Assembly: GCA_963422735.1 (NCBI GenBank)
Contig: OY730476.1
Location: 1,120,001-1,184,000 of the forward strand
DNA: 64,000 nt
DNA from: Candidatus Latescibacterota bacterium
GTDB taxonomy: Bacteria > Latescibacterota > UBA2968 > UBA8231
Reading direction: 5' to 3'
Position 1 is the first letter of the stretch; every line of letters starts with the position of its first letter. The notes under the pieces are model-generated. The model was given only the letters and a program-made list of their open reading frames with translations. It did no database searches and was not told the DNA's origin. Of the stretch, positions 26,119 through 52,310 are shown one piece after another. A program made the translations under genes and the position numbers.

Positions 26119-27551
26119 TGCCTACAGCTACGCGCAGCCTCATCCTCATCCTCATCCTCGCCCTAACCGCCTCTGCCGGTGCCCAAACCGCGATGTGGGG
26201 TGGCTCGCCTGGGCGCAACCAAGCCTCGGACGAGAAAAACCTGCCCACCACCTGGAACACCGAGACCGGCGAAAACATCCAATGGTACGCCACGCTCGGC
26301 TCGCAGACCTACGGCGGGCCCTTGATCGCTGGCGACAAAATTTTCGTCGGCACCAACAACCAGGCCGAGCGCGACCCCAACCACAAAGGCGATCGCGGTG
26401 TGGTGATGGCCTTTAACCGCGCCGACGGGGCCTTCCTCTGGCAGATCGCCCATCCCAAGCTGCCGGCCGGCCGCGTCAACGACTGGCCGCAGCAGGGCGT
26501 CTGCTCGACTCCTTTTATCTTCGGCGACCGCCTCTACTATGTCTCCAACCGCGCCGAAGTCGTATGCCTCGACACCGAGGGCTTCCGCGACGGCGAGAAC
26601 GACGGCCCCATCGCCGACGAAACCGCCACCGCGCCCACCAACGCGGATCTGATCTGGAAATTCGACATGATCGCCGAGTTGGACGTCTTCCCCCACAACC
26701 TCGCTACCAGCTCGCCGCTGGGCGTGGACGGCCGGCTCTTCGCCCTGACCAGCAACGGCGTGGACGAGGGCCACGTCCACATCCCCGCTCCCTTTGCCCC
26801 CAGCTTCATCGCCCTCGACATGCAGACCGGCAGCCTCCTCTGGGACAGCGACCTGCCCGGCGACCACATTCTGCACGGTCAGTGGTCCAACCCCGCCTAC
26901 GGCGAGGCCGGTGGCCGCAAGCAAGTAATCTTCCCCGGCGGCGACGGTTGGGTCTATGCCCTCGCGCCCGACACCGGCGAGCTGATCTGGAAATTCGACT
27001 GCAACCCCAAGGTTTCGGTCTGGGAATTGGGCGGTCGCGGCACCCGCAACAACCTCGTCTCAACGCCCGTTTTTCACGATGGCGTGGTCTATATAGGCGT
27101 CGGCCAAGACCCCGAGCACGGCGAAGGTGAGGGACACCTGTGGGCCATTGACGCCGGCGGCACCGGCGACATCACCGAGACGGGCGTGGTCTGGCACTTC
27201 GGCGGCGAACACTACAACCGCACCATCTCCACCGTTGCCATTGCCGACGGCCTGCTCTATGCCGCCGACCTAAGCGGCTTTGTCTATTGCCTCGACGCCA
27301 AGACCGGCACCCACCACTGGACTCACGACACATTCGCTGCGGTCTGGGGCTCGCCCTTTGTCGCCGACGGTAAGGTCTATATCGGCGACGAGGATGGCGA
27401 CGTCGATGTGCTCAAAGCTGGCAAAACGCTCGAAGTACTACGCGAAACCAATCTGGGCAGCGCCGTGTACACTACTCCGGTCGCCCGCGACGGCGTACTG
27501 TACATCGCCTCCCGCAACACCCTCTTCGCCATTGCAGAAGAGAGCCAATGA
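26118..27551 (+). CDS. Secreted PQQ-like beta-propeller protein
   Basis: TAATG coupling; signal peptide; MWGGSPGRN, CLDAKTGTHHW, WGSPFVADGKVYIGDEDG. Confidence 0.85.
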   Translation: MPTATRSLILILILALTASAGAQTAMWGGSPGRNQASDEKNLPTTWNTETGENIQWYATLGSQTYGGPLIAGDKIFVGTNNQAERDPNHKGDRGVVMAFNRADGAFLWQIAHPKLPAGRVNDWPQQGVCSTPFIFGDRLYYVSNRAEVVCLDTEGFRDGENDGPIADETATAPTNADLIWKFDMIAELDVFPHNLATSSPLGVDGRLFALTSNGVDEGHVHIPAPFAPSFIALDMQTGSLLWDSDLPGDHILHGQWSNPAYGEAGGRKQVIFPGGDGWVYALAPDTGELIWKFDCNPKVSVWELGGRGTRNNLVSTPVFHDGVVYIGVGQDPEHGEGEGHLWAIDAGGTGDITETGVVWHFGGEHYNRTISTVAIADGLLYAADLSGFVYCLDAKTGTHHWTHDTFAAVWGSPFVADGKVYIGDEDGDVDVLKAGKTLEVLRETNLGSAVYTTPVARDGVLYIASRNTLFAIAEESQ

Positions 27552-28624
27552 GCGTTGCACCAAATAAAATCGCCGCTGCTCGCGCTGCCCTCGACGCCCA
27601 TGTCCGCGCCATCATCGAGTGGCACTTCAGCCCCGAGACCGGCTGCCCATTTTGGCTCTCCTACGCGCAACAGTTCGACTTCGACCCGCGCGAGAAAATC
27701 CGCTCCTACGCCGACTTGGCCCTACTCGGCCATTTTGAGGACGAATGGCTGCGCGGCGGCCCGGTGCGCCAGTGGGTGCCCAAAGCCTATGCCGACGAGC
27801 CGATCTATGTCTTCGAGACCGGTGGCTCGACCGGCCTGCCCAAATACCGCATCAACATCCGCGACTTCCAAACCGACTACGCGCTCTACAGCGAGAGTCT
27901 GTCCGAGGAGGGTTTTCCCATCGGGGCCGACTGGCTGATGCTGGGGCCTTCGGGGCCGCGCCGCCTGCGCCTTGCCATCGAGTACCTAGCCCAGCTACGC
28001 GGCGGCTTGTGCTTTCTGGTGGATCTCGACCCGCGTTGGGTCAACGAACTCATCCGCGTCGGCAAAATGCGCGAGCTGGAAGCCTACAAAGCCCATGTCG
28101 TCGATCAGGCGCTCAAGGTCCTCAAGGCCCACGACAACGTGCAGTGCGTCTTCACTACCCCCCGCCTCCTCGAAGCCCTCTGCGAAAAAGTCTCCCTGCC
28201 CAAACTCGGGATTAAGGGAATCTTCTGCGGCGGCACGGAAATGACCGCCCAGTTCCACCGTTTCGCGCACGAGGAGTTGGTGCCCGGCCTCGCCTTTGTC
28301 CCCACCTACGGCAACACCCTAATGGGTCTAGCCTGCCCCAAGCCCTTTGACCCAGCCGATGAGTACGCTATCACTTATTATCCACCGCAGCCACGCGCCG
28401 TCATCGAACTGGTTGATCCCAAAGATCCCTCGCGTAAGGTCGGATACGGCGAGGCTGGCCAAGTCATGCTCACCACCCTGACCAAGGAATTTTTCATGCC
28501 CCGCTTCCTCGAGCGCGACGAGGCCGAACGAGCCGCGCCCGTCGACGCTTATCCTTGGGATGGCGTCAAAGACTTGCGCTTGCTGACGGAGTTGCAAGAG
28601 TCCGTGGTGGTGGGAGTGTACTGA
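27548..28624 (+). CDS. EhpF-like adenylate-forming enzyme (ANL/LuxE-related)
   Basis: WHFSPETGCPFW, ETGGSTGLPK P-loop, DLDPRWV, GGTE, YGNT, ERD and terminal GVY match EhpF motifs as recalled. Confidence 0.8.
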   Translation: MSVAPNKIAAARAALDAHVRAIIEWHFSPETGCPFWLSYAQQFDFDPREKIRSYADLALLGHFEDEWLRGGPVRQWVPKAYADEPIYVFETGGSTGLPKYRINIRDFQTDYALYSESLSEEGFPIGADWLMLGPSGPRRLRLAIEYLAQLRGGLCFLVDLDPRWVNELIRVGKMRELEAYKAHVVDQALKVLKAHDNVQCVFTTPRLLEALCEKVSLPKLGIKGIFCGGTEMTAQFHRFAHEELVPGLAFVPTYGNTLMGLACPKPFDPADEYAITYYPPQPRAVIELVDPKDPSRKVGYGEAGQVMLTTLTKEFFMPRFLERDEAERAAPVDAYPWDGVKDLRLLTELQESVVVGVY

Positions 28625-28666
28625 GGTGGGAGTTCGACGCTAAAGTCATATTGAGAGAGGTACGCA

Positions 28667-28745
28667 ATGGATTATCAAAAGTACATCTACTGGCAGGATG
28701 GCGATATGTGGCTTGGCTATTAGAGCGCTATCCCGACTTCGGAGG
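28667..28745 (+). pseudogene. HicB-like antitoxin 5' fragment
   Basis: MDYQKYIYWQDGDMWLGY then frameshift to LERYPDF; RBS present. Confidence 0.5.
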
Positions 28746-28923
28746 CGCGTACTCTCTCCAGTCATCAAGTGTCAACAAACGCCGAACACCCTTCCTAATG
28801 ATCCCCGAACCGATTGATGTCGCGTCTGACATAGGGTAAACCTTTTCCACCCGGTAAGGTTGATTTCCAGTATAGGAATGTGTATCGTCCATACACATAC
28901 TTATAGGAAAGGAGTAGGCGAAG

Positions 28924-29199
28924 GTGGCCAGAGTTCAGTTAGTGATCCCCGATGAGGATCGCGATCGCTTTGTCCATCAGGCGCGGAGCGAGGGCATGAC
29001 CTTGAGCGCGTGGCTCAGGGCCGCCGCCCGCCGACAACTCGAAGAACAGCAGCGATCCCACCCCTTTGAATCCCCGGCCGACCTCGAGAAGTTCTTCAGT
29101 GCCTGCGACGCATTGGAAGGTCCTGGGCGAGAACCGGATTGGCAAGAGCACCTAGCCGTCATCGACGAATCGCGGAAACGGGACGCATCCAAGACGTGA
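28924..29199 (+). CDS. vapB: VapB-like RHH antitoxin
   Basis: RVQLVIPDE...ARSEGMTLSAWLRAAA; GTGA-coupled to the PIN toxin. Confidence 0.75.
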   Translation: MARVQLVIPDEDRDRFVHQARSEGMTLSAWLRAAARRQLEEQQRSHPFESPADLEKFFSACDALEGPGREPDWQEHLAVIDESRKRDASKT

Positions 29200-29588
29200 T
29201 CTTTGTCGATACCAACGTCTTCATGTACGCGGTGGGCCGGCCGCATCCTCTCCGCGGTGAAGCGCGGGAATTCTTCGCCGAGTGTACCCGATCTCGCGCT
29301 CCTCTATGCACATCGGCGGAGGTGCTGCAGGAGCTAGCTCACGCCTACCTACCGGTTGCGCGAGCGCAGACACTCGATGCTGCCCTATCGCTGATCGCCA
29401 AGTCCCGCGTGGAGGTGTGGCCGCTGGAGCAGGCGGATGTCACCTTAGCGTGGCAACTCCACCAACAGCATCCCACTCTGGGTGCCCGGGACCTTTGCCA
29501 CCTAGCCAGTTGTCGCCGGCGTGGCGTGAGCGAGGTCCAAACCTTCGATCAGGCCCTCAGTGCTGTCATCGGTAGAGCTGCACAGTGA
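29196..29588 (+). CDS. vapC: VapC PIN-domain toxin
   Basis: IFVDTNVFMY, TSAEVLQE, ARDLCHLA, TFD. Confidence 0.88.
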   Translation: MIFVDTNVFMYAVGRPHPLRGEAREFFAECTRSRAPLCTSAEVLQELAHAYLPVARAQTLDAALSLIAKSRVEVWPLEQADVTLAWQLHQQHPTLGARDLCHLASCRRRGVSEVQTFDQALSAVIGRAAQ

Positions 29589-29725
29589 TACTCGGCGCGA
29601 AATAACCACGCCTACATATCTCTTCGGTAGTGGCTATTGCAATGTGATTTGAGGATCGTCCTCATACGCCGAATCTATTTGAACCAGACGCTCTAAAATC
29701 AGACAGAATAACCCGAACAAATGCT

Positions 29726-30019
29726 TTAGTAACACAGTCTCTTTGATAACACCAGTGCATTCAAAACGCCTTCAGGAAAATCAGTACCAAACATGCCTTC
29801 ATCGTCCTTAATCCAGAGATGGATTCTTGGCAGTCTTTGACACAACTCCCGTATCCTATCATCAGCGAGTAGCAACTTGATTTTCTCCGGACTATTGCCT
29901 TTGATTACAACATTCTTGTCCCAAAAGCCCCTGTCAATAAATTCACCGCCTATATCGGTAGCAATCTGTGTCCAGATTTCGTCCTCGGACAGACCCAAAC
30001 TAGATCTGCGTTTACTCAT
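29726..30019 (-). pseudogene. Hypothetical protein (DUF3137-like), apparently internally deleted
   Basis: EIWTQIATDIGGEFIDRGFW joined directly to VIKGNSPEKIKLLL; GAGGA RBS. Confidence 0.45.
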
Positions 30020-30041
30020 TTTTTCCTCATTAAGCGTTCCG

Positions 30042-30129
30042 TTTAGACACCTCAACGGTTGGGGTGTCGCAGACACCCACCCCAACCGTTGGATTACAAA
30101 AAGTCTTCGACGGAGAGCTACGCGGTACA
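30042..30129 (-). promoter_or_regulatory. Cassette element copy 1 (TGTACCGCGT...AACGGTT-GGTGTC-N3-GACACC-AACCGTT-GGTGTCTAAA)
   Basis: Conserved with copy 2 at 30366-30476; bulged palindrome; directly upstream of an RBS and ATG. Confidence 0.7.
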
Positions 30130-30130
30130 C

Positions 30131-30167
30131 AAAAAAAGCCGAGCCCGCCCCAAAGGGCAGGCCCGGC
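30131..30167 (-). terminator. Intrinsic terminator
   Basis: GCCGGGCCTGCCC-TTTG-GGGCGGGCTCGGC-T7; stem mismatches are G-U on the minus strand. Confidence 0.85.
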
Positions 30168-30174
30168 CCTCGGC

Positions 30175-30339
30175 CTACAAGCGATAAGAGTCAACCAACT
30201 CCTCCATCGCTCGATAGGCCAACTCGAGGCGGTTGTGGCACAGTTCCATCTCGTCCCTATCATTCAGGGACTCCGCTACTTGGAACTCGACCTCTTCGCG
30301 CTCAATGCACTCCGCTAGGATTTTATATTCGGCGATCAT
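30175..30339 (-). CDS. 54-aa acidic helical hypothetical protein (below the ORF track cut-off)
   Basis: MIAEYKILAECIEREEVEFQVAESLNDRDEMELCHNRLELAYRAMEELVDSYRL*; AGGAG RBS; fills the space between element copy 2 and the terminator. Confidence 0.7.
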   Translation of the reverse strand: MIAEYKILAECIEREEVEFQVAESLNDRDEMELCHNRLELAYRAMEELVDSYRL

Positions 30340-30365
30340 TGCTCAATCTCCTGATTAAAATTCGA

Positions 30366-30476
30366 TTTAGACACCCCAACGGTTGTGGTGTCACCGACAC
30401 CACCATAACCGTTAGGACCCAACCTATCAGAGAGGGTTAATAGCTACTCAGAAAGAGTTGATAGCCACGCGGTACA
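30366..30476 (-). promoter_or_regulatory. Cassette element copy 2
   Basis: Same motifs as copy 1 with a different loop and bulge and a longer hairpin-rich spacer. Confidence 0.7.
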
Positions 30477-30477
30477 T

Positions 30478-30515
30478 AAAAAAAGCGGGCCCTCCCCCGA
30501 AGGGGAAGACCCGGC
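30478..30515 (-). terminator. Intrinsic terminator
   Basis: GGGTCTTCCCC-TTCG-GGGGAGGGCCC..T7 with a cUUCGg tetraloop. Confidence 0.88.
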
Positions 30516-30536
30516 GCATGGTTTACATTGTTACCC

Positions 30537-30950
30537 TCAAGGACCACCCAGATCATGGATGCTGATAGTGCTCATGCCCCGCACGTGCTGCAGCTTGAGT
30601 TGAACGCGCTTACCCTTGTAGCTGCGCGGGTCGAGACCGAACAGCTGCTCTAACTGCTCGCAGTGATCCTTCGAGAGCACGAAGCCCTTGCCGCCCCCTT
30701 TAAACCACAGCACCGGCTTGTCCTCCATTCTGCCGGTAGTGCGATTATAGATCTCCTCAGAGGTGATGGACTTAATCGTCAGCGTTGGTTCCTTAGAATC
30801 AAGAATGTCGCCCACCGAGTAGTAGGGCGACGAGTAATACTGCTGGGTTAGCGTTTTCTTTGAGTTTTGTGCGTAAAGCAGGATCATACTTGTAAGAATC
30901 ACGCTAATAGCGTGGAGAAGCACTCTTTCGATTGTGAAGATGCTATTCAT
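30537..30950 (-). CDS. Membrane-anchored phage-type protein, paralogue A
   Basis: N-terminal hydrophobic helix; TLTI..EE..KPVLWF..KGFVLS..LFG..YKGKRVQL; clear paralogue of 31639-32067. Confidence 0.7.
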   Translation of the reverse strand: MNSIFTIERVLLHAISVILTSMILLYAQNSKKTLTQQYYSSPYYSVGDILDSKEPTLTIKSITSEEIYNRTTGRMEDKPVLWFKGGGKGFVLSKDHCEQLEQLFGLDPRSYKGKRVQLKLQHVRGMSTISIHDLGGP

Positions 30951-31171
30951 TCCTTCTGCTCCTTCTTAGACGGGTTAAGACATGCGGCTTCCTTCTCGTT
31001 GAGTTTCTCGAACTGGTTCTGCTTGGCCCGTTCGAGCACCAAGCCTTGACGGTACATAGTCCGCACCATCTCGGTCGGCTTGACGTTGGGGCCAAAGACC
31101 TGTCGAAGGAACAGCAGGTCGGGGTCGTCGAGGTCGAACGGCACCTCGACCCTAATTGCTTGGTGCGCCAT
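30947..31171 (-). CDS. 74-aa protein, possible ribbon-helix-helix DNA-binding protein
   Basis: AAGGAGG RBS; IRVEVPF strand followed by two helices; ATGA-coupled to paralogue A. Confidence 0.55.
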   Translation of the reverse strand: MAHQAIRVEVPFDLDDPDLLFLRQVFGPNVKPTEMVRTMYRQGLVLERAKQNQFEKLNEKEAACLNPSKKEQKE

Positions 31172-31337
31172 CGGCTTCCTCCTTCCAGCCGGCCAAAAAG
31201 GCGGCATACATCCATTCGCGGTCGGGGGTCTCCCCCGTCTCGAGGTTAAGCGTGTAGCAAACGCCACACGCTTTTTCCACCGCTACAGTACGACGTGCTA
31301 GCTGATCAAACTAGCCTTGCGTCCACCGAAGGTTCAT
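31152..31337 (-). pseudogene. Small phage-like ORF with in-frame TAG at codon 9
   Basis: MNLRWTQG*FDQLARR...CGVC...MYAAFLAGWKE; TAATG coupling to the upstream ORF. Confidence 0.5.
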
Positions 31338-31375
31338 TAGCTCTCTGCCTCTAGCTCGGCCAGCTCAGCCGCCCG
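31315..31375. repeat. Junction direct repeat copy 1 (21 bp and 41 bp blocks fused)
   Basis: 31315-31335 = 32337-32357 and 31335-31375 = 32404-32444, identical. Confidence 0.9.
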
Positions 31376-31642
31376 GTCGGCGCCCGCCCGCTGGAAACAA
31401 TCCGCCTCGGCTATGATAGCCGGATCGTGGGTAGCCTCGGCCTCGGCCTCGTCGATTGCGGCGGCCCTTGAAGCCACCGCCAGTGCGTCGAAAGCCTCTC
31501 GGAAATCGCTAAAGCGGAGAGCACCGGAAGTGCCCAGCCGCCGGGCCCTATCTGAGCTACTTGATAGCCACTCGACACATAATCCGAGGGCGCAGTCCAG
31601 CTTCGTAAGAGCCTAGACCGGAGAGGCCGTCTGCGTACTCAT
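31337..31642 (-). pseudogene. Small phage-like ORF with in-frame TAG at codon 10
   Basis: MSTQTASPV*ALTKLDC...RAAELAELEAES*; ATGA overlap with paralogue B stop. Confidence 0.5.
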
Positions 31643-32067
31643 CTTTCATCCTCCCCTGTGTAGTGGATACGAATCGTGCTTAGGCCTTGTACGGACTGGA
31701 GCTTGAGTTGAACGCGCTTACCCTTATAGGTACGCGGATTAAGACCGAACAGGTACTCTAGCTGCTCGCATTGATCCCACGAGAGCACCAAGCCCTTATT
31801 CCCTTCGTAAAACCACAACACCGGCTTGGTCTCGGTGTGTCCAGTAATGTGGTGCTTCACCTCCTCGCGGATAATCGTTTGAATGGTCAGCGTCGGCTGC
31901 TCCGCTTCGATGTCGGCCATTGAGTAGTACTGCGACGGGTAATACGGCTGGATAAGCGATTGTACTTCGTTTCCTTTTATTGGGTTGGGCTCATATCTTA
32001 TTAGTGCTATGAGCCCGTTTCCTAAGAGTACTGCGAACGTGCTTAGACATAACAAAGTCCAGTTCAT
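31639..32067 (-). CDS. Membrane-anchored phage-type protein, paralogue B
   Basis: N-terminal hydrophobic helix; YPSQYYSMADI, TLTI, KPVLWF, KGLVLS, YKGKRVQL; AGGAGG RBS. Confidence 0.7.
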   Translation of the reverse strand: MNWTLLCLSTFAVLLGNGLIALIRYEPNPIKGNEVQSLIQPYYPSQYYSMADIEAEQPTLTIQTIIREEVKHHITGHTETKPVLWFYEGNKGLVLSWDQCEQLEYLFGLNPRTYKGKRVQLKLQSVQGLSTIRIHYTGEDER

Positions 32068-32111
32068 TTACTTCTCCTCCTGTTTAGATGGGTTTAGACA
32101 TCTGATACCTT

Positions 32112-32348
32112 CTATTTCAGGATAGAGGCGGCCTTGACTAGACGCTCTATCCAAAATTGACCCCAATCCTTCGTCGCCTTTAGCGTCCTTTGTGGCTTGT
32201 CCGTCTTAAAGACAAACCGATTTTCCTTCGTACTGATAACAACCTCCAAGGACCATAGCGACGCCTTCCGCATGATAGAAATATGCCGGTCGATGACCGC
32301 ATACGTGCCTGCGGGCAAATCGAGCCACTCTTCCTTCCTTGCGTCCAC
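32112..32348 (-). CDS. Small hypothetical protein, 5' end probably frameshifted
   Basis: 78-aa ORF; the NLRWTQG peptide shared with 31152-31337 lies one base out of frame upstream. Confidence 0.45.
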   Translation of the reverse strand: MDARKEEWLDLPAGTYAVIDRHISIMRKASLWSLEVVISTKENRFVFKTDKPQRTLKATKDWGQFWIERLVKAASILK

Positions 32349-32444
32349 CGAAGGTTCGCTTCACTCACACCATACTGCTGAGCATACCCGATTCTTGTCC
32401 GGCCATTAGCTCTCTGCCTCTAGCTCGGCCAGCTCAGCCGCCCG
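32337..32444. repeat. Junction direct repeat copy 2 (same blocks separated by 46 bp)
   Basis: Identical 21-bp and 41-bp blocks to 31315-31375. Confidence 0.9.
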
Positions 32445-32798
32445 CCGGACCAGCTCAGCCGCCGCTTTAGGCGCGGCCTGCTCTAGCGCCCATCGCCAAT
32501 CCCCTGCGGTGGCGCCGTGCTTGGCCGCCACCGCCTCAAAGCTACCGAGCGTGTCGGCCAGCGTCTGGTAACGATTAGCAACCAACTCCACCAACTCAAC
32601 GCGATCCGCCAGGGTCAGAAAGCCGATCCACCCCGACCATTTGCCGTTCTTGTTATAGGTCTTATCCGTACAAACAGCAAGACTCTTGGCCCCGTCCTGG
32701 GGCTTCGACAAAAAAGTAACCCCGTTGTCACTCACTAGGAAATAATAGGGCCGCTGGGAGCCGGGATACAACCCCGTGCGAAATCGTACGGTTTTCAT
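32406..32798 (-). CDS. Phage-like hypothetical protein
   Basis: AAGGAG RBS and upstream CATAAT; YNKNGKWSGW motif; first gene of the small-ORF array. Confidence 0.65.
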   Translation of the reverse strand: MKTVRFRTGLYPGSQRPYYFLVSDNGVTFLSKPQDGAKSLAVCTDKTYNKNGKWSGWIGFLTLADRVELVELVANRYQTLADTLGSFEAVAAKHGATAGDWRWALEQAAPKAAAELVRRAAELAELEAES

Positions 32799-32917
32799 GC
32801 TTCGATCTCCTTATTTAACCTTCATTATGAAAACGACGCCTTTTCCGACGCCCCAAACTATTGCAGATTATAAATCGCAAAGGCTCGCCCCAAATCCAAA
32901 CCAAAAACCAAAATCCC

Positions 32918-34315
32918 ATGCACCTACCTCTTCTCCGCGCCGGTCAGCCCTACGCCAGCCTCGACCGCCTCGCTGTCGCCCACATCGCCACCGGCCAACC
33001 TATGGCTCACGTCAGCCAAGCCAACCGCGGCCTGATCGCCCGCGACTTAGCCGCCCAAGAACGCAATCGCCAAGCACTGCAAGCTCTCACCGTCGCCGAA
33101 TTGGTCGCCATCTGCCAACGAGCAGCCGATCTCTTTTTGCACGCCGAGCTGCCTTTAGGCGACGGCAGCCAAACCCCGGACGACTACGTCGCGCAAGTCT
33201 CGGCCACCACCGGCCTGCCGCAGTCATTGGCCCGCGCCAACATGGACAAAATCCACCGCGTCGGCGTCGAAATGCCCGCCGTGCTCAGCGGCCTGACCCG
33301 AGGTTTGGATCTAACCATCCTCGACGACGGCCCAAGTCCGCTCCACTTCGTGCCCCACGCCCAAGCCCTCGGCTGCATCCTGCCGAGCAATTCGCCCGGC
33401 GTCCACGCGCTATGGCTGCCAGCCATCCCGCTCAAGAAGCCGCTGGTGCTCAAGCCGGGCCGTGAAGAGCCGTGGACGCCCTATCGCATCGCCCAAGCCC
33501 TGATCGCCGCCGGCTGTCCACCCCACGCTTTGAGCTACTACCCGACCGATCACAGCGGCAGCACTGAAATCCTGCTCCGCTGTGGTCGCTCGCTGCTGTT
33601 TGGCGGCGGCTCTACTGTAGCGCCCTGGCGCGGCGACCCTCGCGTCCAGTTACACGGACCAGGGCGCAGCAAGATCATCATCGGCGCAGACAAAATCGAC
33701 CAGTGGGAGCACTACCTCGACTTCATGGTCGCCTCAATCGCCGCCAATGGGGGCCGCTCCTGCCTCAACGCCTCCGGCATCTGGGTGCCCGAGCGGGGCC
33801 TTGAAATCGCGGCCGCTCTCGGCGAGCGTCTGCGCCAAATCCAAGCCCGCCCCCTCGACGATCCCCAAGCCCAAATCGCCGCCTTCCCCAATCCCGCAGG
33901 GGCGCGCCAACTCTCAACCCGAATCGACGCCCAGCTCGGCGACGCGGCCCAAGACACGGCCAGAGACCCAGGCGAACGCATCGCCGAGGTCGGCGGCTGC
34001 ACCTTCCTCAACCCAACCTTGATCCACGCCCCCGACTGGCAACATCCGCTCGCCAATGCGGAGTATCTCTTCCCCTTTGCCGCCGTCGTCGAAGTTCCGC
34101 AAGAAGAAGTGGTCGTGCGCATCGGCCCGACGCTGGTAGCTACCGCCCTCACCGAGGACGAGCACCTAACGCGCCAACTGCTCGCCGCGCACCACATCGA
34201 ACGCCTCAACCTCGGCCCGATCCCCACTCACCAGATCGCCTGGGATCAGCCGCACGAGGGCAACCTCTTCGACTTCCTCTACCAGCAGCGCGCCTTGCAG
34301 CGCAGAGCCGGATGA
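32918..34315 (+). CDS. Aldehyde dehydrogenase-fold acyl reductase (EhpG/LuxC-like)
   Basis: LPSNSPGVH, LKPGREEP, NGGRSCLNASG (catalytic Cys), EYLFPF; HGPGRSK where hydrolytic ALDHs have ELGGK. Confidence 0.8.
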   Translation: MHLPLLRAGQPYASLDRLAVAHIATGQPMAHVSQANRGLIARDLAAQERNRQALQALTVAELVAICQRAADLFLHAELPLGDGSQTPDDYVAQVSATTGLPQSLARANMDKIHRVGVEMPAVLSGLTRGLDLTILDDGPSPLHFVPHAQALGCILPSNSPGVHALWLPAIPLKKPLVLKPGREEPWTPYRIAQALIAAGCPPHALSYYPTDHSGSTEILLRCGRSLLFGGGSTVAPWRGDPRVQLHGPGRSKIIIGADKIDQWEHYLDFMVASIAANGGRSCLNASGIWVPERGLEIAAALGERLRQIQARPLDDPQAQIAAFPNPAGARQLSTRIDAQLGDAAQDTARDPGERIAEVGGCTFLNPTLIHAPDWQHPLANAEYLFPFAAVVEVPQEEVVVRIGPTLVATALTEDEHLTRQLLAAHHIERLNLGPIPTHQIAWDQPHEGNLFDFLYQQRALQRRAG

Positions 34316-35439
34316 CCCCTTTCGACTTTGATCCATCCATCCGCGTAGTCTTTGGTGCCGGGACCCTCGACCGGCTAGGCGATCTCGCCCAGGCGTTGGC
34401 CGGCCCCCACGCCCTGCTCGTAACCGACCCCGGCCTCGTCCAAGCCGGCCTTGCCGAACAGGCCCTGCACGCGCTACAAAACGCCGGGCTAGAGACGACC
34501 CCCTTTTCCGCCCTAACGGAAAACCCCACGACCGAACACGTAGCCGCCGGCGTCCGTCACGCCCGCGCCCACGGCCCCATTGACCTGATCGTCGCCTTGG
34601 GCGGCGGCAGCGTTATGGACTGCGCCAAGGGCATCAATTTCCTGCTTACCAACAGCGGCCCAATGCAGGACTACCGAGGCTATGGCAAAGCCACCCAGCC
34701 CATGCTACCCTCCATCGGCGTTCCCACTACGGCCGGTACGGGTAGCGAGGCCCAATCCTACGCCCTGATTACCTGCCCTGACACGGGTTCCAAAATGGCC
34801 TGCGGTGACCACAAAGCGCGCTTCCACATCGCCCTCCTCGACCCGAACCTGCTGGCCAGCACCCCCCAGCGCGTCCGCGCCGACGCTGGCATGGACGCCC
34901 TCGCCCATGCCGTCGAAAGCTACGTCTCCACTCGCCGCACCCCCCTCTCGCAGATGTTCGCCCGCCAAGCCTGGCGGCTGCTAGCGCCCCACTACGAGGC
35001 GGCCGTCGCCGATCCCCAAAACGCCGCCGACACCATGCTTTTAGGGGCCCATCTAGCCGGCACCGCCATCGAAAACTCCATGCTCGGCGCCGCCCATGCC
35101 ACCGCCAACCCCCTCACCGCCCGCTACCCGCTCACCCATGGCCGGGCCGTGGCCCTGATGCTGCCGCACGTGATCCGCTTGAATGGCCCCGTGGTGGACG
35201 ATCTATACGGCGAACTGTGCGTGGATATCCAACTCAATGGTAGCACCTTCGCGCTCGCTGCCCATCTCGAAGAACTATGCACTATGGCAGGACTACCGCG
35301 TCGGCTCGCCGATTGTCAGGTCGCCGCAAGCAATCTACCCGCCATGGCCCAAGACGCCGCCGGCCAATGGACCGGCACCTTCAACCCGATTCCTCTGCAA
35401 GAAGTGGATTTCCTGCGACTGTACGAGACGGCGTTTTGA
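34312..35439 (+). CDS. Iron-containing alcohol dehydrogenase
   Basis: ALGGGSVMDCAK, PTTAGTGSE, DALAHAVE, GAAHATAN, HGRAVA; ATGA coupling. Confidence 0.92.
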   Translation: MTPFDFDPSIRVVFGAGTLDRLGDLAQALAGPHALLVTDPGLVQAGLAEQALHALQNAGLETTPFSALTENPTTEHVAAGVRHARAHGPIDLIVALGGGSVMDCAKGINFLLTNSGPMQDYRGYGKATQPMLPSIGVPTTAGTGSEAQSYALITCPDTGSKMACGDHKARFHIALLDPNLLASTPQRVRADAGMDALAHAVESYVSTRRTPLSQMFARQAWRLLAPHYEAAVADPQNAADTMLLGAHLAGTAIENSMLGAAHATANPLTARYPLTHGRAVALMLPHVIRLNGPVVDDLYGELCVDIQLNGSTFALAAHLEELCTMAGLPRRLADCQVAASNLPAMAQDAAGQWTGTFNPIPLQEVDFLRLYETAF

Positions 35440-44225: not shown

Positions 44226-46125
44226 TTAATACGCCAGCGAGACGATGCGCGAGCGGGCCTTGGTGCCGCCGTCGGTCTCTACCTCGAGGCGCAGAACGTA
44301 CAGCCCGGGAGCAAGCCGGGCACCCCTTTCATCCCGGCCATCCCACACCGTGGAAAACTGTCCGCTCTGCGCGGGTCCGCGGAAGACCTCGCCGATCCGT
44401 ACGCCCTGCAAATCGTAGAGCACCACTGCTAATTCGGCCTTCCCGATCACATTCAACAGATCGCATTCAATCCGCACTGCGTCGTTGATCTGGTCCCCGT
44501 TGGGCGTAAACGCCGCTGGCACGAGCTTGAGCGCACCGATCACTTGCCCGGCGATGTTGGTCAGCCCCACGCTCAGCGTATTGCCCTCAACCCGCTCCAC
44601 TACTTCGCCCGGCGTCATTACTTGGCGCACTTCCTGCGGCCGAGTGCTGTCGTACACGCGGCCCGAGAACAGGGTGCCAAACTTGAACACCTCACAGCGA
44701 AAGACCACTTCAATCAGCTCGCCATCGCGCGCTTGGTCTATCCGCGGGACGCCGACTGCAAAGCCGCGCCCATCGAGCCGCCGCACCTCAAAGGCAACCT
44801 CCTCGCCGCTGTAGCGCACCGCGTCAATGCCCTCCGCCTGAGTCGGCGTATCAATCTCGATAGTGTCGAAACCCAAGTCCCCGGCTTCTAGGCGCGGTAG
44901 CAGCATGTATGTAAATGAACTCGGTCGCCGCGCCCGTGGGTGCTAGGGGGAGCGCAATCTCGGCCAAAACCAAGGCAGCCACCGGCGGCTTAGACACGGC
45001 GAATTGCACGAAATTCAGCCGCCCACCCGCTTCTACCGTGGACTGGAAGTTCGCCCTGATCTGCACGAACTGCCGAGGTTGCGTCCCCTGCATCGGAGCG
45101 CTACCCAACGCCAAGTCGTAGGCCGCGCTCCAGCCCTCCCAGTTTTCAGTATCGGGTGTGATTCCAGCCTGCTGTGCCCTCTCCAGTCGGTTGTACGACC
45201 GCAGCGTCAAAGGCCGCCCTCGGGTATCCAGCCGGGTCTGCTCATCGCCGCGGAACGTGCTGCGCCAATAGGTGTTGGGGTCGCTGTCGTCGCCGGCGCG
45301 CGTACTGAGCTCGATTTGCGCGCCGGGATCGACTTGGGTGTTCCAGCTTAGTTTGCCCAGCGCCGCCCGCCCACCCAAATCGAGGACATTGGACACGTAG
45401 CGCGCCGTTGGCGTGAAGCCCTTGCCGTAGATTTCGAACTCGGCGATTTCCCAGATGCCTTGGGTGTTTTCAGGCGCTTCAAAGAGCATGCGGCGAATTG
45501 GTACCGGCGGCAGATCCAGTTCGACCACCGAGGTCGTATTCTCGGTAGCCTGATGTACGATGTCGAAGTCGAAGAAGGAGCCGCGCGTGCCCTCCTTGAG
45601 CGGGTTGCCATCGCTGATGCCGATGATAAAGCGCTGTAGGAAGCGCTCGTCCTCAAAGCGCTCGCGCAGATAGAACTTGACGCGCTCGACTGTGAAGTTG
45701 CCGCCGAACTCAAAAATTAGACTCTTATTGCGCACGCCGATGCCCGAGGTGGTCCAATGCCCGTCGCCCAAGAAGACGGTCTCTACATCTTCGTCCCAGA
45801 GCACGGCCTCGGTGTCGCCGCTTTGCTCCCAGCCCCGCCAAACCAGCGTCTGCACTCGGCCACCGCGCTCCTTGAGGCGCGGTGTCAGGTTTACCGATGG
45901 GTCCAGTTGCTCCGGCTCGATGAAGTCCGCATCGAGCTTCAGGGATTCGACTTGGCCGTGCTGCGCGGATTCCACCCCCTCCCAATCGAGCTGCACAAAT
46001 TCCACCCCCTCGGCCAACTCCGGCCTCGGCAGCGAGGAACCGCCGATTCGATAAATCGTCAGCGCATCTGCGCCGCTAGTCAGCCAAGCGGACACGAGCA
46101 CAAGTCGGGTACAGGTCTTTAGCAT
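44226..46125 (-). pseudogene. Large secreted protein with C-terminal FlgD-Ig domain, frameshifted by a 4-bp duplication at 44905-44912
   Basis: Signal peptide; FTPNGDQIND...VWDGRDERG...GLYVL; removing one ATGT joins the two ORFs. Confidence 0.8.
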
Positions 46126-46209
46126 AACCGTGGCCCTCTTTAAGACACGAGGGTCCTCTGGCGAGATAGGCGGTAATAATCCAATGACGCGCCAAAGGAA
46201 CTAGAAGAG

Positions 46210-46519
46210 CTAAACAGCAACAACTCTCTGTTGTCCTTCTCTATCTTCTGAGGGAATAATGTGGAACTCAATATCGAGATTCAGTCGGTTGAGAAACGTC
46301 ATTAACTGCTCAACGCTGTAATGGTTAAACTTGCCCTGCTTTAGGTTGCTTCACCCCTAAAATTTTCGCGGCCTCCGCTTGGGTCAGCTTCCGGTTTTCT
46401 ATAATTTGAAACACCTTAAACCCAAGTGTTGCCCTGAGAAACAATTCCTCCGCATCTGGCAAGCCGAGATCCTCAAACACATTACCCGAACTTTTTTCAA
46501 ACGCAATCTCCCTGCTCAT
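46210..46519 (-). pseudogene. HigA-like XRE antitoxin, frameshifted
   Basis: SSGNVFEDLG...LTQAEAAKILGVKQP / FNHYSVEQLMTFLNRL. Confidence 0.75.
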
Positions 46520-46522
46520 AAT

Positions 46523-46835
46523 TTATTCTCCTCCAGTTCTCGCGCCACTCGCAGACGTCTCTTGACAAGATCTATCTCTTTCTTTGGAGTTTTCATTCAT
46601 CCTATCGCCAATTTTCACCGAATACACGGAGCGGTAAGTGTCTGTTCTGTGCTCTGCCCATATTTCAAAAACTTCGGAATCAACGCCCCTAAATGGTTTA
46701 GTCGCCGGAGACATGCTTCCCGCCGGTGCAATAAATAGAGCGTCACCTATATCCTTTTGAATAGACTCCGCGCTGCCTTGCCTTGGAATCCCCGACCCAT
46801 ATAGCCTCTTTTAAGTTTAGTCTTTCGCGATTCAT
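46523..46835 (-). pseudogene. RelE/Gp49-like toxin, eroded
   Basis: IWVGDSK, KPFRGVDSEVFEI...DTYRSVYSVKIG; stops and deletions. Confidence 0.7.
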
Positions 46836-46907
46836 AAAGCATTATAACATTAATAACCAATAGGACATAAACAGGTCAATGTCCTATTCGGTTGTTATAT
46901 GCCTTCT

Positions 46908-48679
46908 CTACAGAGTCTTGTAATAGGCCCGTATCTTGGCGGCCATGCGTTCTCTACGCTTTTGCAGGAAAGTGTCATAGCCTTCGACACCTGAGGCATC
47001 CATTCCTTCAGGGATGCAGTGGGCCGCGAGGTTCTCTTGCAATTGATCGGCATCGGTTATCCCGCCGTAGCGAGTTGCGCCGTTTCTGCACTGCTCCCAC
47101 AGTTTTGAGAAGTATTTTTCCGGTGGCAGAGCTCCGATAGCGATGTTGATTTCGCTCTGCATTATCACATAATTGGCAATCTGATTGTAGCGACCAGGTT
47201 GGAAGCCGTGCCTCTGCAAATAGCTGCGCGGGAATACGTGATGAATGTGCCACTGGCCTTCCAGCAGGTCGCGCACGGTGATAGCACGTGAGAGGAATCC
47301 CTTGTCGTTTCCTCTTACTTGGCTTGCGAGGAAGACGTTGAAATAGGGACTGCTGGCCACCGAGGTGTCCATCTGTTGCGGCAAGCCTACCTCCCAGAAG
47401 GCGTCCGAGAGCTCTGCTCGTTCGATTGTATCCAGATACCGGCTTGCACCCTGTCTAGCGATGTTTCCAATATCGGCGCCGAAGGCGGTTTCGGGTGAGT
47501 TGGTGTATCTACTTGTCAAGATCGACATCACCAACCACCGACGCACGAGCCTCTCAATTCGCTCAGGAGCCTCACCCTGCGAGCGCAACGTCAAGAAGAG
47601 GATGTAGGCGAAATTGACGGTGTTTTTGGACCTGATCAGCGATGAATCTACGAACCCTGCCGAGTGCAAGATCATGACGAACCGTTTGAAGTTGGTCTCG
47701 TTCATGTAGCACAGGATCCCATCTCTGAGCGTACGAAAGGCCTCTTCTGCGGTGGCTTCCTCGAATGTTCGTGTCTCAAAGTTGCGCCCTGAGAGTAGAG
47801 GGACTAAGTCCTCTAAGCGCCCACGTTTGAACTGAGACGTAAACGCGACGCGAAGCATATCGGTGTATGAGGGGTCGTAGAGGTCATCCTTTTCATTCTT
47901 CAGCCACTCCATTGCACGGAAGTAGTCCGTCGAGGCGAAGTCAGCATCGCTGGCCAAGTCGCTATATGCTTCCGGCGCGACGGCCAGATGGCAGAAGTAG
48001 TCGATGCACTTTCGCAGCAGATGACCACCGTACTGTTCGCTGGCGGCTATCTTGGACATTGCGAAGTCCGCCGCATTAAGCGAGACACCCTGCGAGTTTA
48101 TGCGGACGAAGATTTCCGCGACAGTCTCAACCTCCAGATCGGCGTTCAACTCGATGACGCCGAGGGAATTGTTGCGAATACCGCGAAGGCGTTCCATGCG
48201 ATCATCGATTTCGTATTTGTCTGCAACATGATTCGCTTCGCAGTAGTCGTCCACTAACTGACGTATTCTCGCGTCGGGAGCGAAGACAGTGGATATGTCG
48301 GCAATCCATCCTCTATCCCGGCGTATGGCGGCGTTTGCCACCTCAAAGCACTTCTCGCCAGGATGAAAGGCGATAGATATCCGTTTCCGCTTGTAGTTTT
48401 TGTCGACAACCTGCTTCCCAAGCAAAGCGGCCAATAACGCCATAACGCGCTGCTGACCGTCGATCAAGATACGCTTCCCTGTTGATTGGGTACCATCCTT
48501 CAAGCGATGAGATACCCTACGGGATAACCGTTGTACAGCGAATCGATAAAATCGCGCACCTTTACCGCGCTCCAGACGAAGGGACGCTGGATCTCAGGAA
48601 TAGCGATTTCATCGGAGTTGATCCAAGTCAGCAGGGTCTCGATAGGATGCTGATTAATTGAGTAACTTTGGATGGGCAT
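46908..48679 (-). pseudogene. GmrSD-like (DUF262-DUF1524) restriction protein, frameshifted near 48505
   Basis: [18 protein letters not shown] in one frame; [23 protein letters not shown] in the other. Confidence 0.85.
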
Positions 48680-48815
48680 CTATCCTCTCTTTCGATTTGT
48701 GGCTTTGGTATGCCCCAAAGGGCAGGGTTTGGAGATTCGCTCCGCAGTGCGGAGTGTTTTGAAAAGGTTCGGTAAAATTGCTGCATATTGTGAGGGCCCC
48801 AAGGCTTGGTAGCTT

Positions 48816-49840
48816 TCACAGACTGGCGAATATCGAAAGAAAGGCCAATCCCGCGACCCGCGTCTCGCGTTCCCGCCCGACCACTTCCAAGGAACGCCGG
48901 TCAAAGCGCAACCCAAGCTGGGTCGTCAAGCCGTAGCCTAAATACTCCCGCTGATTGCTCAATTGCGCCGCCCACACCATGCCGCGAAAATCGCCCGTCA
49001 GCACGTTTTTCGCCAAAACCTTTTCGTCCCGCAGCAACTCGAAGAACAGTCGCTGCTCAAACCCCAGTTCAAGCTCTGAGCCTCGCATCGCGGGGAAGCG
49101 GAGCAAAAGCGACCCGATCCCGTCCCAAGAAAGGCGGCGGTGCTCGGCCAAGGAGAAGGGGGATTGGCTGAGGAACTCGCTTTTGAAACGGGGCAAAATC
49201 GCCACCGCGCCCCACGCGAAGACGCCGTCGATCTTGTCGATCAACCCCACAAAACCAGAAGTCTCCCGGCCATTGCGGCCCAAAGGCTCGCGCTGGTGCC
49301 ACCAGTCCCACTTGAAGCGATGCTTAGTCGTCCAGCGCCGCGAACGGGCGTACTGCCACTCGGCGTAAAACGTATTGATCCAAGTGTCCTCAGCCGCCAG
49401 CAGATCAGGCACGGCAATATGCTGCCCGCTCGTCTGCCCGGCGGCCCCGAATTCGAGCGTTGGCACGATCCACTGCGACAGCGGGTCGGGGATGGTGTCT
49501 GCGGCCTTCTTCAGCATGTCGAAGACCCGTACCCGGCCGCGGCCGGGCCAATCCCGTTCAAAGGCAACAAGCCCGTAGGCGGTGTGGTTTTTGCGGTCGG
49601 TCTGACGCATATCTTGGCGCAGGTAGCCGGCGGAGAGGCGGATTTCGGGGTTGACCTCCACGCTGACGTAGGCGTTGTAGCCCCAGTGGTCTTTCTTGTA
49701 GGGATAGTCTGGCAAATCGTCGTTTTCAAAGCGCTCGGCCCAGCCATTGTTGTTGAGGTCAATGCCAAAGAGGAACTCCGGCCGGTCCGAGTGGTGGCGC
49801 AGGAAAGGCTCCTCGTAGTCGGGGAAAAAATTCTCCCGAA
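48816..49840 (-). pseudogene. C-terminal fragment of a large beta-barrel-like protein
   Basis: Alternating amphipathic strands ending FLSIFASL; frameshift near 49735; 5' part absent. Confidence 0.55.
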
Positions 49841-50090
49841 TGGTTTGGGGGACCGGCTTTTATAAAAAAGCTGTCAGACAGATGGACGAATTTTTGAGGA
49901 CAAGTGGTAGTGTGGGACTGCCTATCTGCCCATGTTGGCTAGCAAGCATAGCTTTTTTGGAAGGGTTGCTCGCCTCGACGGACTCGCCCTTAACCTCCTG
50001 CTCAGAAGGAACGCTAATTCCTACCCCAATAGCCTCTTAGAAGCGGTCTTATAATTCCGGGTTCGGTTCCTCAAGCGGCTCAAACCCTCT

Positions 50091-50114
50091 GGGACCGAGG
50101 GCGTCTCGCCCTCG
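50091..50114. repeat. REP-like palindrome
   Basis: GGGAC-CGAGGGCG-TCT-CGCCCTCG. Confidence 0.45.
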
Positions 50115-50224
50115 AACATCGCGAACGCGACCGGCCGGCAAAGCCGCCCGAGGGGGGTTGTAAGACCGCTTCAAGAGGGCTACCGTTGCGCAATGGTCCC
50201 CAAAGACGGTACCGGATCACTCTT

Positions 50225-50329
50225 GTGAGTAATACGTTCAATCGCATTCGGGCGCTGATTTCCGAGGGCAGTATCCGATTACCCGATCTCGAGAAATGGG
50301 AACTTGGATTCAAGCGGAGGCGAAAATGA
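50225..50329 (+). pseudogene. DUF4258-like toxin with its core deleted
   Basis: N-terminus (RIRALISEGSIR) fused to the typical C-terminus (PDLEKWELGFKRRRK); ATGA coupling to partner. Confidence 0.55.
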
Positions 50330-50523
50330 ATAAGACAGACCGGACGAAGCTCGTTCACGAAGGTAACTATATTGCAGAAGTTGACGTAGAGCTACTAGAA
50401 GAGCCTGAAGGATGGTCACCGTACTTTTCTCTTGAAGACGCGTATCGTCTCGACGATGTGCGAGAGGCTCTTCGTCGAGGGGGCATTAAGACCGCTGCAA
50501 AACGCCTGTGTAAAGCCGTATAA
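50326..50523 (+). CDS. Small antitoxin-like partner of the DUF4258 gene
   Basis: KLVHEGNYIAEVDVEL...WSPYFSLEDAYRLDDVREAL. Confidence 0.6.
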   Translation: MNKTDRTKLVHEGNYIAEVDVELLEEPEGWSPYFSLEDAYRLDDVREALRRGGIKTAAKRLCKAV

Positions 50524-50593
50524 CTCGTCGCTCAATCCGGGTGCTTAACTATGTCTAGAAAATTACGCGGGGTACCGCAGGACGTCTAAAGAA

Positions 50594-51433
50594 ATGAATT
50601 CCATATTTGGATTTCCACCAATCCACAAGACGTATCTTACGCCTCCAGATGATATCGCTTCTCGTTTGCAAAGCCTAATTGGTACGCCATTCAAATTGAC
50701 GGGAAAGACTAGGACAGATGGCTCGAATGTGAGAAAGCTTATTGCACAGACTCTCGCAGAATTCTCATTACCTAAACCATGCCCCCAGTCATCTTATTCT
50801 ATCGTACCACTTAAAGAAAAAGGATTACCAAGGATACTTTTAGAATATGTAGACACCTATGTCGTAACTACAGGTAATACGTACAATCTCCAAGTGTGGA
50901 ATCGAAATCCGGCATCTGACTCTATCCAAGTTGAATACAATTCCGGTGAGACCCTATCGTCAAAGGATGTCCGATTCGTTTTCCTGCGTGTTGACCCACG
51001 GACTCAGGCAATAAGTTCAATCCTTGTCCTGACCCCAGATTATATCGAGAGTAAATTCGGACGCTTTGGCAAGCCGACGATTAAACACCAAATCATAATT
51101 CCGCCAAAAATTAAAGATAAGGCACTAGCTCAAAATCCGCCGGGCATTTTCTGTTCAGATACATCTGCTCTCTCTCAACATGTAACGGGTAAGTATGCTA
51201 TTCCGACCTCTTCAATAAACCAGGTATTGGAGGTCAAGGTGCAGGATTCGCCGACCGTAGATCTAGGAAAATTCAGTCCTCAGTTCAAAGAGTGCGTACC
51301 GTTAAGCGATTCATTCCCTGTGCCAGATCGCCAGCGGCCAGAGTCGTTGTGTGAGAATATGAGACGTAGTAAACAGTCTTCCGGTCGTCTATCTTCAGGC
51401 ATATCGTCCCAGTCCGAGCGAATAAAAATTTGA
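50594..51433 (+). pseudogene. Type II restriction endonuclease, truncated
   Basis: Low GC; convergent with an MTase; LEVKVQDSPTVDLG PD-(D/E)xK-like motif; 3' end runs into MTase sequence. Confidence 0.6.
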
Positions 51434-52310
51434 TCGGCCGTCGTCTTAATGCCAACCCTTACCTTCACAACGTCACCAATTCGACACTTTGCCGCCGATT
51501 CTATTTTACCAATCCACTTCTTCTTGGTCGCAGTTACCATCTGCCAAGATTCGGAGGACAACTTAGAGAAGGAAAGAGTCCCCGTCGAGAGTCTGAATCG
51601 GGTTTTAGACACCAAGTATTCACCCTCAGACTTTTGCCTGAGAATGTCGTACACTGAATCAACATGGATTGGCTTTTCTCGATCATCGAGATTACTTGTC
51701 CTATTTTCGTAAATTTTGACGAATCTTTTTGGCCGCCTTGGGTTAGTAGAGAAACGCGATGTAGAGGGTACTTTTCTAGCGATCAAGATAGCTGGCAGAA
51801 CGGCAGCCTCGAAAAGCTTGGTGTCGCCGAGGTCGATCAGTTCGACTATCTCGTAATCTTCTGCAATGAACGCTCTGATGGAGGCTCCACCTTTTGTTGA
51901 AATAAACCGATTGGAAGTGATGACACCTATAATGCCATTATCTTTTAAACACTGGATCATCGCCACCAGAAAAGCTTGGTATAAATAGATTTTGCCTTTC
52001 AGACGAAAGGCTTTTGCTAACTCCTGTGATTTCCAGGCACCGAGGACCTGCGTTCGGACGTAAGGAGGATTGGCGATTATAATATCTACAGGAGGAATAG
52101 TCTCATTGGTTGGAGACTCGTCGTTAAACAGCTCTATCTGCGCCTTTGAATCGGTGTAAAGTTCAAGGAAATCCATCCTCTTGAGAAAATTCGATTTTGA
52201 GCCAAACGCTTCTAACCGCTCTTGGGCCTTCCCGAGGGATAAATCGTCGAGCTCTATCCCTGTAATGGCGGTATTTCTTATGTATATTATCTGACAACGA
52301 GCCTGCTCCT
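51280..52310 (-). pseudogene. N6-adenine DNA methyltransferase (TaqI/Eco57I-like), truncated at both ends
   Basis: IIANPPYVR, LYQAF, ITSNRF, VRVGIKTTAD; motif I missing, target-recognition domain cut short. Confidence 0.8.

Follow-up and report, generated by a model that had tools for sequence, protein, structure and literature searches.

The window analyzed here is a 64-kb stretch of a ~4.95-Mb contig from a Candidatus Latescibacterota bacterium. It is bacterial chromosome of ~60% G+C content (GC), carrying genes for sulfatases, PQQ-type propellers, GFO/IDH/MocA oxidoreductases, PhyH, TPR proteins and ABC transporters, and no tRNA gene. Flanked by the genes of an AMP-binding enzyme and of an aldehyde dehydrogenase lies a 4.2-kb island (28625–32860), whose GC is 0.540 versus 0.603 for the rest of the window. 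Its minus strand bears open reading frames (ORFs) of 130, 78, 142, 74, 137, 54 and 97 amino acids (aa), its plus strand a vapB-like gene and a PIN-domain gene. Two intergenic regions on the minus strand of this island, 30540–30337 (copy A) and 30178–30017 (copy B), hold the element in question, a composite terminator-hairpin-promoter-like spacer that we call the module. The gene order around it is 137-aa ORF, copy A, 54-aa ORF, copy B, 97-aa ORF. This two-copy spacer is real and non-random. Both copies read, in order, terminator with a run of seven T residues (T7), TGTACCGCGT, spacer, palindrome, GGTGTCTAAA, a leader with TTAAT and an AGGA ribosome-binding site (RBS), and ATG:

30478..30513, minus strand: copy A intrinsic terminator (stem-loop 30513-30486, T7 30484-30478; 12 pairs, 9 of them G-C, loop 4)
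30467..30476, minus strand: copy A TGTACCGCGT, a conserved 10-mer adjoining the T-run
30414..30466, minus strand: copy A variable spacer
30378..30413, minus strand: copy A palindrome, AACGGTT-AT-GGTGGTGTC-GGT-GACACCAC-AACCGTT, 36 nt
30366..30375, minus strand: copy A GGTGTCTAAA box, with a third GGTGTC half-site and the putative -10; ATG 26 nt on
30340..30365, minus strand: copy A leader, TTAAT and AGGAG ribosome-binding site
30131..30171, minus strand: copy B intrinsic terminator (stem 30171-30134, T7 30137-30131; 17 pairs, 11 of them G-C)
30120..30129, minus strand: copy B TGTACCGCGT
30054..30090, minus strand: copy B palindrome, AACGGTT-GGGGTG-GGTGTC-TGC-GACACC-CC-AACCGTT, 37 nt (arms 30091-30078 and 30066-30053)
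30042..30051, minus strand: copy B GGTGTCTAAA box; ATG 22 nt on

An earlier note on this DNA had described this anatomy, and sequence reading together with an alignment bears it out, the element order being identical in both copies. The terminator of copy A begins 23 nt past the stop of the 137-aa gene and that of copy B immediately past the stop of the 54-aa ORF; computationally, both satisfy the criteria for intrinsic termination. The palindrome common to both copies, AACGGTT..GGTGTC-N3-GACACC..AACCGTT, measures 36–37 nt and is located 110–125 nt past a stop codon, beyond the terminator. As the note had also stated, G(C/T)GACA and GTCTAAA are separated by 16 nt in both copies, equivalent to GYGACA-17 nt-TCTAAA, the 54-aa ORF (30339–30175) fills one unit, and GACACC can, on reading the sequence, pair with either GGTGTC. 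By eye, the spacer of copy A contains a 21-nt tandem duplication (30468–30448 and 30447–30427, 17/21 identical), for which Tandem Repeats Finder made no call.

When the region 28600–32900 was compared with itself by BLAST, only two blocks, of 67–68 nt and 75–81% identity, were found to repeat between the units. The 5′ block (30527–30460 versus 30179–30113; 75% over 68 nt) corresponds to the terminator and TGTACCGCGT, the 3′ block (30413–30349 versus 30090–30024; 81% over 67 nt) to the palindrome, box and leader. Module homology runs from near the stop codon as far as the start codon, with no relation between the flanking genes. What repeats is the intergenic module and not the genes. The separation of 324 bp given in the earlier note applies to the 3′ blocks, whereas the 5′ blocks are 347 nt apart. 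The spacer duplication in copy A would largely account for this 23-nt difference in offset.

Chance is excluded for the element as a whole. In the window, the exact GGTGTC-N3-GACACC occurs only at the two module sites, and none of 100 shuffled sequences contained the palindrome pattern. A covariance model built from both copies and run over the whole window with filters off recovered them at 110.3 and 104.9 bits; the next match scored 17.6 bits (E=0.21), and the remaining two were the palindromes read on the opposite strand. Over the window, the covariance search of the kind proposed in the earlier note returned only the two known copies at full score, and neither this model nor pattern searches disclosed a third full module in the window. 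TGTACCGCGT alone is unremarkable (4 matches at ≤1 mismatch versus 3.3 expected). The island also has one possible and one partial relative:

32796..32864, minus strand: possible degenerate third leader ahead of the 130-aa gene, without palindrome (17.6 bits, E=0.21, not significant)
31561..31582, minus strand: partial third copy of the 5′ block (TTATGTGTCGAGTGGCTATCAA), 86%, past the 142-aa gene, without terminator or palindrome

The TGTCTAAA box, in which TCTAAA resides, is found 4 times in the window versus 0.53 expected, a count that none of 100 shuffles reached. Of these copies, three belong to the island and are placed 26, 22 and 25 nt ahead of the starts of the 54-aa, 97-aa and 142-aa ORFs; the fourth (51604–51611) falls inside a methylase ORF. 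The last of the island copies and a variant are not part of a module:

32093..32100, minus strand: TGTCTAAA box without palindrome, 25 nt ahead of the ATG of the 142-aa gene
30975..30982, minus strand: TGTCTTAA variant, 24 nt ahead of the 137-aa ATG, inside the end of the 74-aa ORF

Since TGTCTAAA precedes island starts, once without a palindrome, it behaves as a separable promoter/leader element to which the palindrome is an add-on. The putative promoter, GTGACA or GCGACA followed after 17 nt by TCTAAA, agrees with the sigma-70 consensus at 9 or 8 of 12 positions, and the G+C-rich palindrome is situated upstream of it. Promoters of extracytoplasmic function (ECF) sigma factors have AAC in the -35 and a CGT-type -10. 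The -35 proposed here, G(C/T)GACA, is without AAC, the AAC triplets of the arms being 10 or ~41 nt from GTCTAAA, and no ECF sigma gene turned up among the 80 window ORFs scanned with Pfam.

The genes next to the modules, and a further ORF upstream of them, are the following:

30537..30950, minus strand: 137-aa gene preceding copy A, its N-terminal stretch hydrophobic by eye; paralogue of the 142-aa gene
30175..30339, minus strand: 54-aa ORF between the copies, acidic, GC 0.52
29634..30019, minus strand: decayed gene following copy B, a ~208-aa-family pseudogene comprising the 97-aa ORF (30019-29726), GC 0.43
30947..31171, minus strand: 74-aa ORF, RBS and ATG at 31171, ribbon-helix-helix-like by eye

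Pfam, PHROGs, PADLOC and NCBIfam gave no match to the 54-aa ORF. Its homologue elsewhere, likewise of 54 aa and at 72% identity, shows that the gene is real; its unit is therefore presumably expressed. The 137-aa protein has a single outside homologue (136 aa, 60% identity). The outside homologues of the two proteins are each encoded on a contig of 13,596 nt, apparently the same one, and the two genes are thus probably neighbors in another genome too. That they appear to travel together argues for a fixed arrangement over shuffling.

Behind copy B, residues 1–39 of the 97-aa ORF match the start of a relative and residues ~40–85 match its positions ~113–161, ~70 residues being missing; the 43 residues of the C-terminus can be read only by changing frame, to a stop at 29636–29634. 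At E≤1e-10, 1087 of 1194 candidates belong to the ~208-aa family, which abounds in records bearing the name Candidatus Poribacteria. Of the 120 members listed, four are named 'DUF3137 domain-containing protein [Candidatus Poribacteria bacterium]', Pfam DUF3137 was found in 1 of the 11 relatives scanned, and a literature search found no paper joining Poribacteria and DUF3137. Several short N-terminal fragments of the family are also present in the protein library (P0043, P0047, P0048, P0050 and P0057).

The downstream genes therefore vary: those behind the two copies are unrelated, and their GC (0.43 for the pseudogene versus 0.52 for the 54-aa gene) indicates that genes behind the same module differ in history. 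For this reason, a single duplication carrying identical cargo does not suffice to describe the element. The earlier note had named two copies from one local duplication with no variable cargo as the outcome that would speak against it; within 64 kb there are indeed two copies only, but the cargo does vary.

The island around the modules is a small, decaying accessory patchwork, rich in duplications. A segmental duplication of ~1.1 kb within 30537–32444 (minus strand) includes the paralogous 142-aa (31639–32067) and 137-aa genes (61% aa identity; 73% nt identity over 301 nt), both with hydrophobic N-terminal stretches. Exact repeats of 41 nt (32444–32404 = 31375–31335) and 21 nt (32357–32337 = 31335–31315) are the sign of a second, truncated copy of the 130-aa gene's end. 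Between conserved flanks, the duplication has different middle genes (78 aa versus 74 aa), a second case of swapped cargo in the island. None of the seven minus-strand proteins matched anything at E≤0.001 in Pfam, PHROGs, PADLOC or NCBIfam, the best family match among them being one weak PHROG match at E=0.0015.

A duplication, repeats, a truncated gene copy and a pseudogene in one island would suit a module that is an inert remnant, i.e. an intergenic region duplicated during local rearrangements, with later indels swapping the neighbors and conservation reflecting young age or gene conversion; with n=2, conservation is also untestable. The divergence is patchy, however: arms, T-run, TGTCTAAA and RBS are kept while spacer and loops differ, the terminator stems still pair despite substitutions, and the 54-aa gene is conserved elsewhere. 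We consider an inert remnant quite unlikely.

Folding of the palindromes brings in a further alternative. As DNA, copy A with its flanks forms 10+8 pairs, leaving a bulge and a loop of 3 nt each (-15.7 kcal/mol, z -5.0), while copy B is most stable as a perfect 14-bp stem closed by an 11-nt loop; both strands give stable folds as single-strand DNA. As RNA, 65–66 nt of the two copies fold at -29.4 and -29.9 kcal/mol (z about -4), and 0 of 200 shuffles were as stable. In the alignment of the two copies, the terminator stem is kept along with arms, T-run, TGTCTAAA and RBS, and this alternation of conserved and diverged blocks fits constraint on these parts. One pair of the palindrome is compensatory (T-A versus G-C), two sequences being too few for statistics, and inspection by eye adds another in the terminator stem (C-G versus G-C). 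The earlier description of kept stems with differing loops is accurate as such, but the copies fold differently as DNA and compensatory pairs are few.

These folds might signify an element acting at the mRNA level. Transcription would then arrive mainly by read-through or from a start upstream of the palindrome, the palindrome would serve as an intercistronic or 5′-UTR stabilizer or as a processing site for a double-strand RNase, and TGTCTAAA would be leader, not -10. The very stable RNA folds, the compensatory pair, the two possible partners of GACACC and the non-canonical -10 candidate would all suit such an element. On the other hand, the T7 terminators 80–110 nt upstream of the palindromes let little read-through be expected, and no conserved promoter-like block is present between terminator and palindrome. 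Rfam yielded no family at E≤1 over 27000–35000, save a spurious 5.8S match. Moreover, the alternative pairing of GACACC must break a much stronger outer stem, and TGTCTAAA is also found without the palindrome. An mRNA-level element therefore appears unlikely to us.

We tentatively favor, at somewhat below an even chance, the reading that each copy is a transcription-unit boundary module, composed of terminator, operator/promoter and leader, that was spread locally by recombination. The intrinsic terminator would close the transcription unit of the upstream gene; because the upstream genes end in strong terminators, the downstream genes would need a start signal of their own. G(T/C)GACA-17-TCTAAA in the TGTCTAAA box would restart transcription and give a short-leader mRNA of the next small gene. 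Lying across the putative -35, the palindrome would most likely be, jointly with the third GGTGTC at the putative -10, an operator for a repressor. We suggest that the module, not the genes, was copied or exchanged by recombination within the 4.2-kb low-GC island, which would be why the same regulatory spacer precedes two unrelated genes. The term 'expression module' is reasonable for such a two-copy spacer, and to this extent the gene-cassette unit of the earlier note stands; the recombination site that the note also considered, like a widespread cassette family, found no support in the sequences searched.

Several observations weigh against a boundary module. With two copies only, constraint and recent gene conversion are statistically inseparable. 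A sigma-70 scan called no promoter at either module; TCTAAA is without the A at -10 position 2 that the scan requires. The 14–18-bp arms of the perfect palindrome exceed typical operators, and, given its compensatory change, so long a perfect palindrome might as well be a hairpin of RNA or of single-strand DNA. Indeed, the single compensatory pair hints at selection for pairing, hence for a hairpin in RNA or single-stranded DNA. Copy B may no longer function, because its downstream gene is a pseudogene. In addition, no regulator of the palindrome was identified: from its sequence, the product of the 74-aa ORF is a candidate binder, but it gave nothing in Pfam at E≤10 or in a phmmer search of the PDB at E≤10.

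Beyond the window, 185,579 species-representative genomes were scanned for AACGGTT-N10-40-AACCGTT-N1-4-GGTGTCTA with the inner stem left free, a pattern of 22 exact bases by which diverged relatives would be missed. The host genome is not among the matches and is evidently outside this collection. Four loci matched, none of them with the inner GGTGTC/GACACC palindrome; we read these as chance matches, their number being of the order roughly estimated for chance. No module copies emerged when the island was compared with phages, and the cassette with plasmids, by blastn. Tblastn against phages returned nothing for the 137-aa protein, the 130-aa protein or a 208-aa relative of the pseudogene (P0004), and tblastn of P0004 against plasmids likewise nothing. 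A full-text literature search with 10-mers and 15-mers of the element returned 54 papers with one or more of the four strings; the 8 among them that were listed have unrelated titles and contain neither 15-mer. Taken over the 64-kb window, the species-representative genomes (by exact pattern), phages and plasmids, these searches do not support a recombination site, a relative of attC or a widespread cassette family.

Some specific origins were dropped. A cyanobacterial one is not indicated, the HIP1 sequence (GCGATCGC) not being enriched (7 versus 3.5 expected). Copy A contains GGTGACAC and, on the opposite strand, ATTTAGACACC (at 30387–30401 and 30366–30375 of the minus-strand copy); we take these to resemble parts of SP6 RNA-polymerase promoters and, without a phage context, treat them as coincidence. 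A hairpin promoter of the N4 virion RNA-polymerase type and an SP6-like promoter were ideas that we abandoned, nothing phage-like being present.

The AAC...GTT ends of the palindrome had been likened to attC in the earlier note, and with this likeness comes the possibility that the element is a DNA recombination or mobility site: a hairpin for a recombinase or transposase encoded elsewhere, in the style of attC, REP/RAYT or IS200/IS605, and the unit a true mobile cassette. At their ends the arms bear AAC...GTT, oriented as in attC, the palindromes are located between small orphan genes on the same strand, a toxin-antitoxin pair is nearby, and both the differing origin of the cargo and the single-strand DNA folds would suit such a site. 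An attC site follows its ORF closely. Here, a T7 terminator and 80–110 nt separate the ORF end from the palindrome, a promoter-like box lies beyond it, and the units apparently have start signals of their own. In the account cited, the RYYYAAC arm of attC pairs with GTTRRRY, the sites possess an L box, an unpaired central spacer and extrahelical bases and measure 57–133 bp, and integron cassettes are mostly promoterless and expressed from Pc (PMC5027507). Against these 7-mers, copy A has TCCTAAC (6/7) and GTTGGGG (6/7), copy B ATCCAAC (7/7) and GTTGAGG (6/7), motifs so short and degenerate that they are weak evidence. At 36–37 nt, the palindrome is shorter than the attC described there. It also differs in lacking an L box and consistent extrahelical bases (the best fold of copy B has none), and in that the bases GGTT/AACC next to AAC/GTT are paired, leaving no unpaired spacer. 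The attC resemblance thus breaks down in length, in L box and unpaired spacer, in placement with respect to the ORF and in promoterless cargo. Nor was a linked recombinase, for which the earlier note had proposed a check, found: the 80 ORFs scanned contain no recombinase, integrase, transposase, RAYT or phage domain. Two sites only in 64 kb, four pattern matches all read as chance, and 137-aa and 54-aa genes that seem to stay together on another contig point the same way, and we regard a recombination or mobility site as very unlikely.

In architecture, the boundary module appears closest to the promoter early stem-loops (PeSLs) of T4-type phages, without being a member of them. As far as the cited accounts describe them, PeSLs are experimentally studied composite terminator/promoter motifs that flank orphan genes, recombination between copies shuffling the genes (PMC2839356, PMC4122927), and their early promoter is of strong sigma-70 consensus, preceded by an AT-rich region (PMC2839356). 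They occur in many copies in hyperplastic regions of T4-type genomes, where exchange by recombination between them is documented. The likeness consists in a terminator stem-loop plus a promoter-like motif around small orphan genes in a plastic region, with the motif, not the gene, being shared; the enclosed gene could thus be exchanged or lost when copies recombine by homology. The stem-loop terminating upstream transcription is matched here by computed stems of 12 and 17 pairs with T7. The module differs from the PeSLs so described by its place in a bacterial chromosome, by two copies versus dozens, by a promoter that departs from the sigma-70 consensus and has a G+C-rich palindrome upstream, and by this extra 36–37-nt palindrome between terminator and promoter. 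Moreover, the island sequences have no PHROG match at E≤0.001 and no phage match by tblastn or blastn. The PeSL analogy drawn in the earlier note hence carries over in architecture, but not in phage context, copy number or promoter consensus. That the copies belong to an undescribed family of chromosomal PeSL-like cassettes, possibly of a Poribacteria-related lineage, in which recombination at the blocks or the hairpin would capture, swap or delete single genes with no recombinase in cis, seems to us highly improbable.

Other systems of small accessory genes bear looser likenesses. A moron is a lone gene placed among (pro)phage genes that brings along a promoter and a terminator. The 54-aa unit is likewise a single gene with a putative promoter upstream and a factor-independent terminator downstream, in DNA of lower GC than its surroundings. 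It differs in that its promoter is only putative and that there are no phage genes in the island or among the window ORFs scanned; phage morons are, in the source cited, independent transcriptional units in phage genomes (PMC3594210). The rAID-1 clusters of Bacteroidales are described as comprising up to 31 genes, many of them immunity-gene homologues, along with a conserved recombinase of the XerD family (bioRxiv 10.1101/471110). Small accessory gene arrays, skewed GC and repetitive intergenic sequences are features in common with that description, from which the island differs in that no recombinase or immunity-gene homology was found in it and only two repeats are present. Repetitive extragenic palindromes with their associated tyrosine transposases (REP/RAYT) number tens to hundreds of copies per genome, have a conserved tetranucleotide beside the palindrome and come with a RAYT transposase gene. 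In comparison, the module has two copies in 64 kb, and its GTAG is 25–28 nt from the palindrome, not adjacent.

As it stands, the module is a two-copy local feature in a decaying island, and whether it matters more widely hinges on further copies in the host or its relatives. Were it active, single-gene expression units of the PeSL or moron type, as in phages, would also organize tiny accessory genes in a bacterial chromosome, and the conserved spacers could be cross-over points for gene swapping. An active module would also be a compact, portable terminator-operator-promoter part. If true, this would bear on the gain and loss of orphan genes in symbiont-type genomes.

On the plus strand of the island, a 15-nt inverted repeat (TATAGGAATGTGTAT / ATACACATACTTATA; 28871–28905) overlies, by eye, a promoter-like site, TTGATT-17-TATCGT, directly upstream of the pair formed by the vapB-like gene (weak ribbon-helix-helix matches) and the PIN-domain gene (28924–29588). 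This repeat is probably the operator by which this toxin-antitoxin pair regulates itself. Further upstream, a short plus-strand ORF (28667–28840) starting MDYQKYIYWQDGDMWLGY ends in an early stop and seems to continue in another frame; we take its start to resemble that of a HicB-like antitoxin. Pfam gave nothing for the overlapping 94-aa ORF. A second low-GC stretch of the window (46000–52200, GC 0.47–0.56) encodes a GmrSD_N-domain protein (46908–48503, minus strand) and a fragment of an Eco57I/N6_Mtase-type methylase (51280–52176, minus strand), and is probably a restriction or defence islet.

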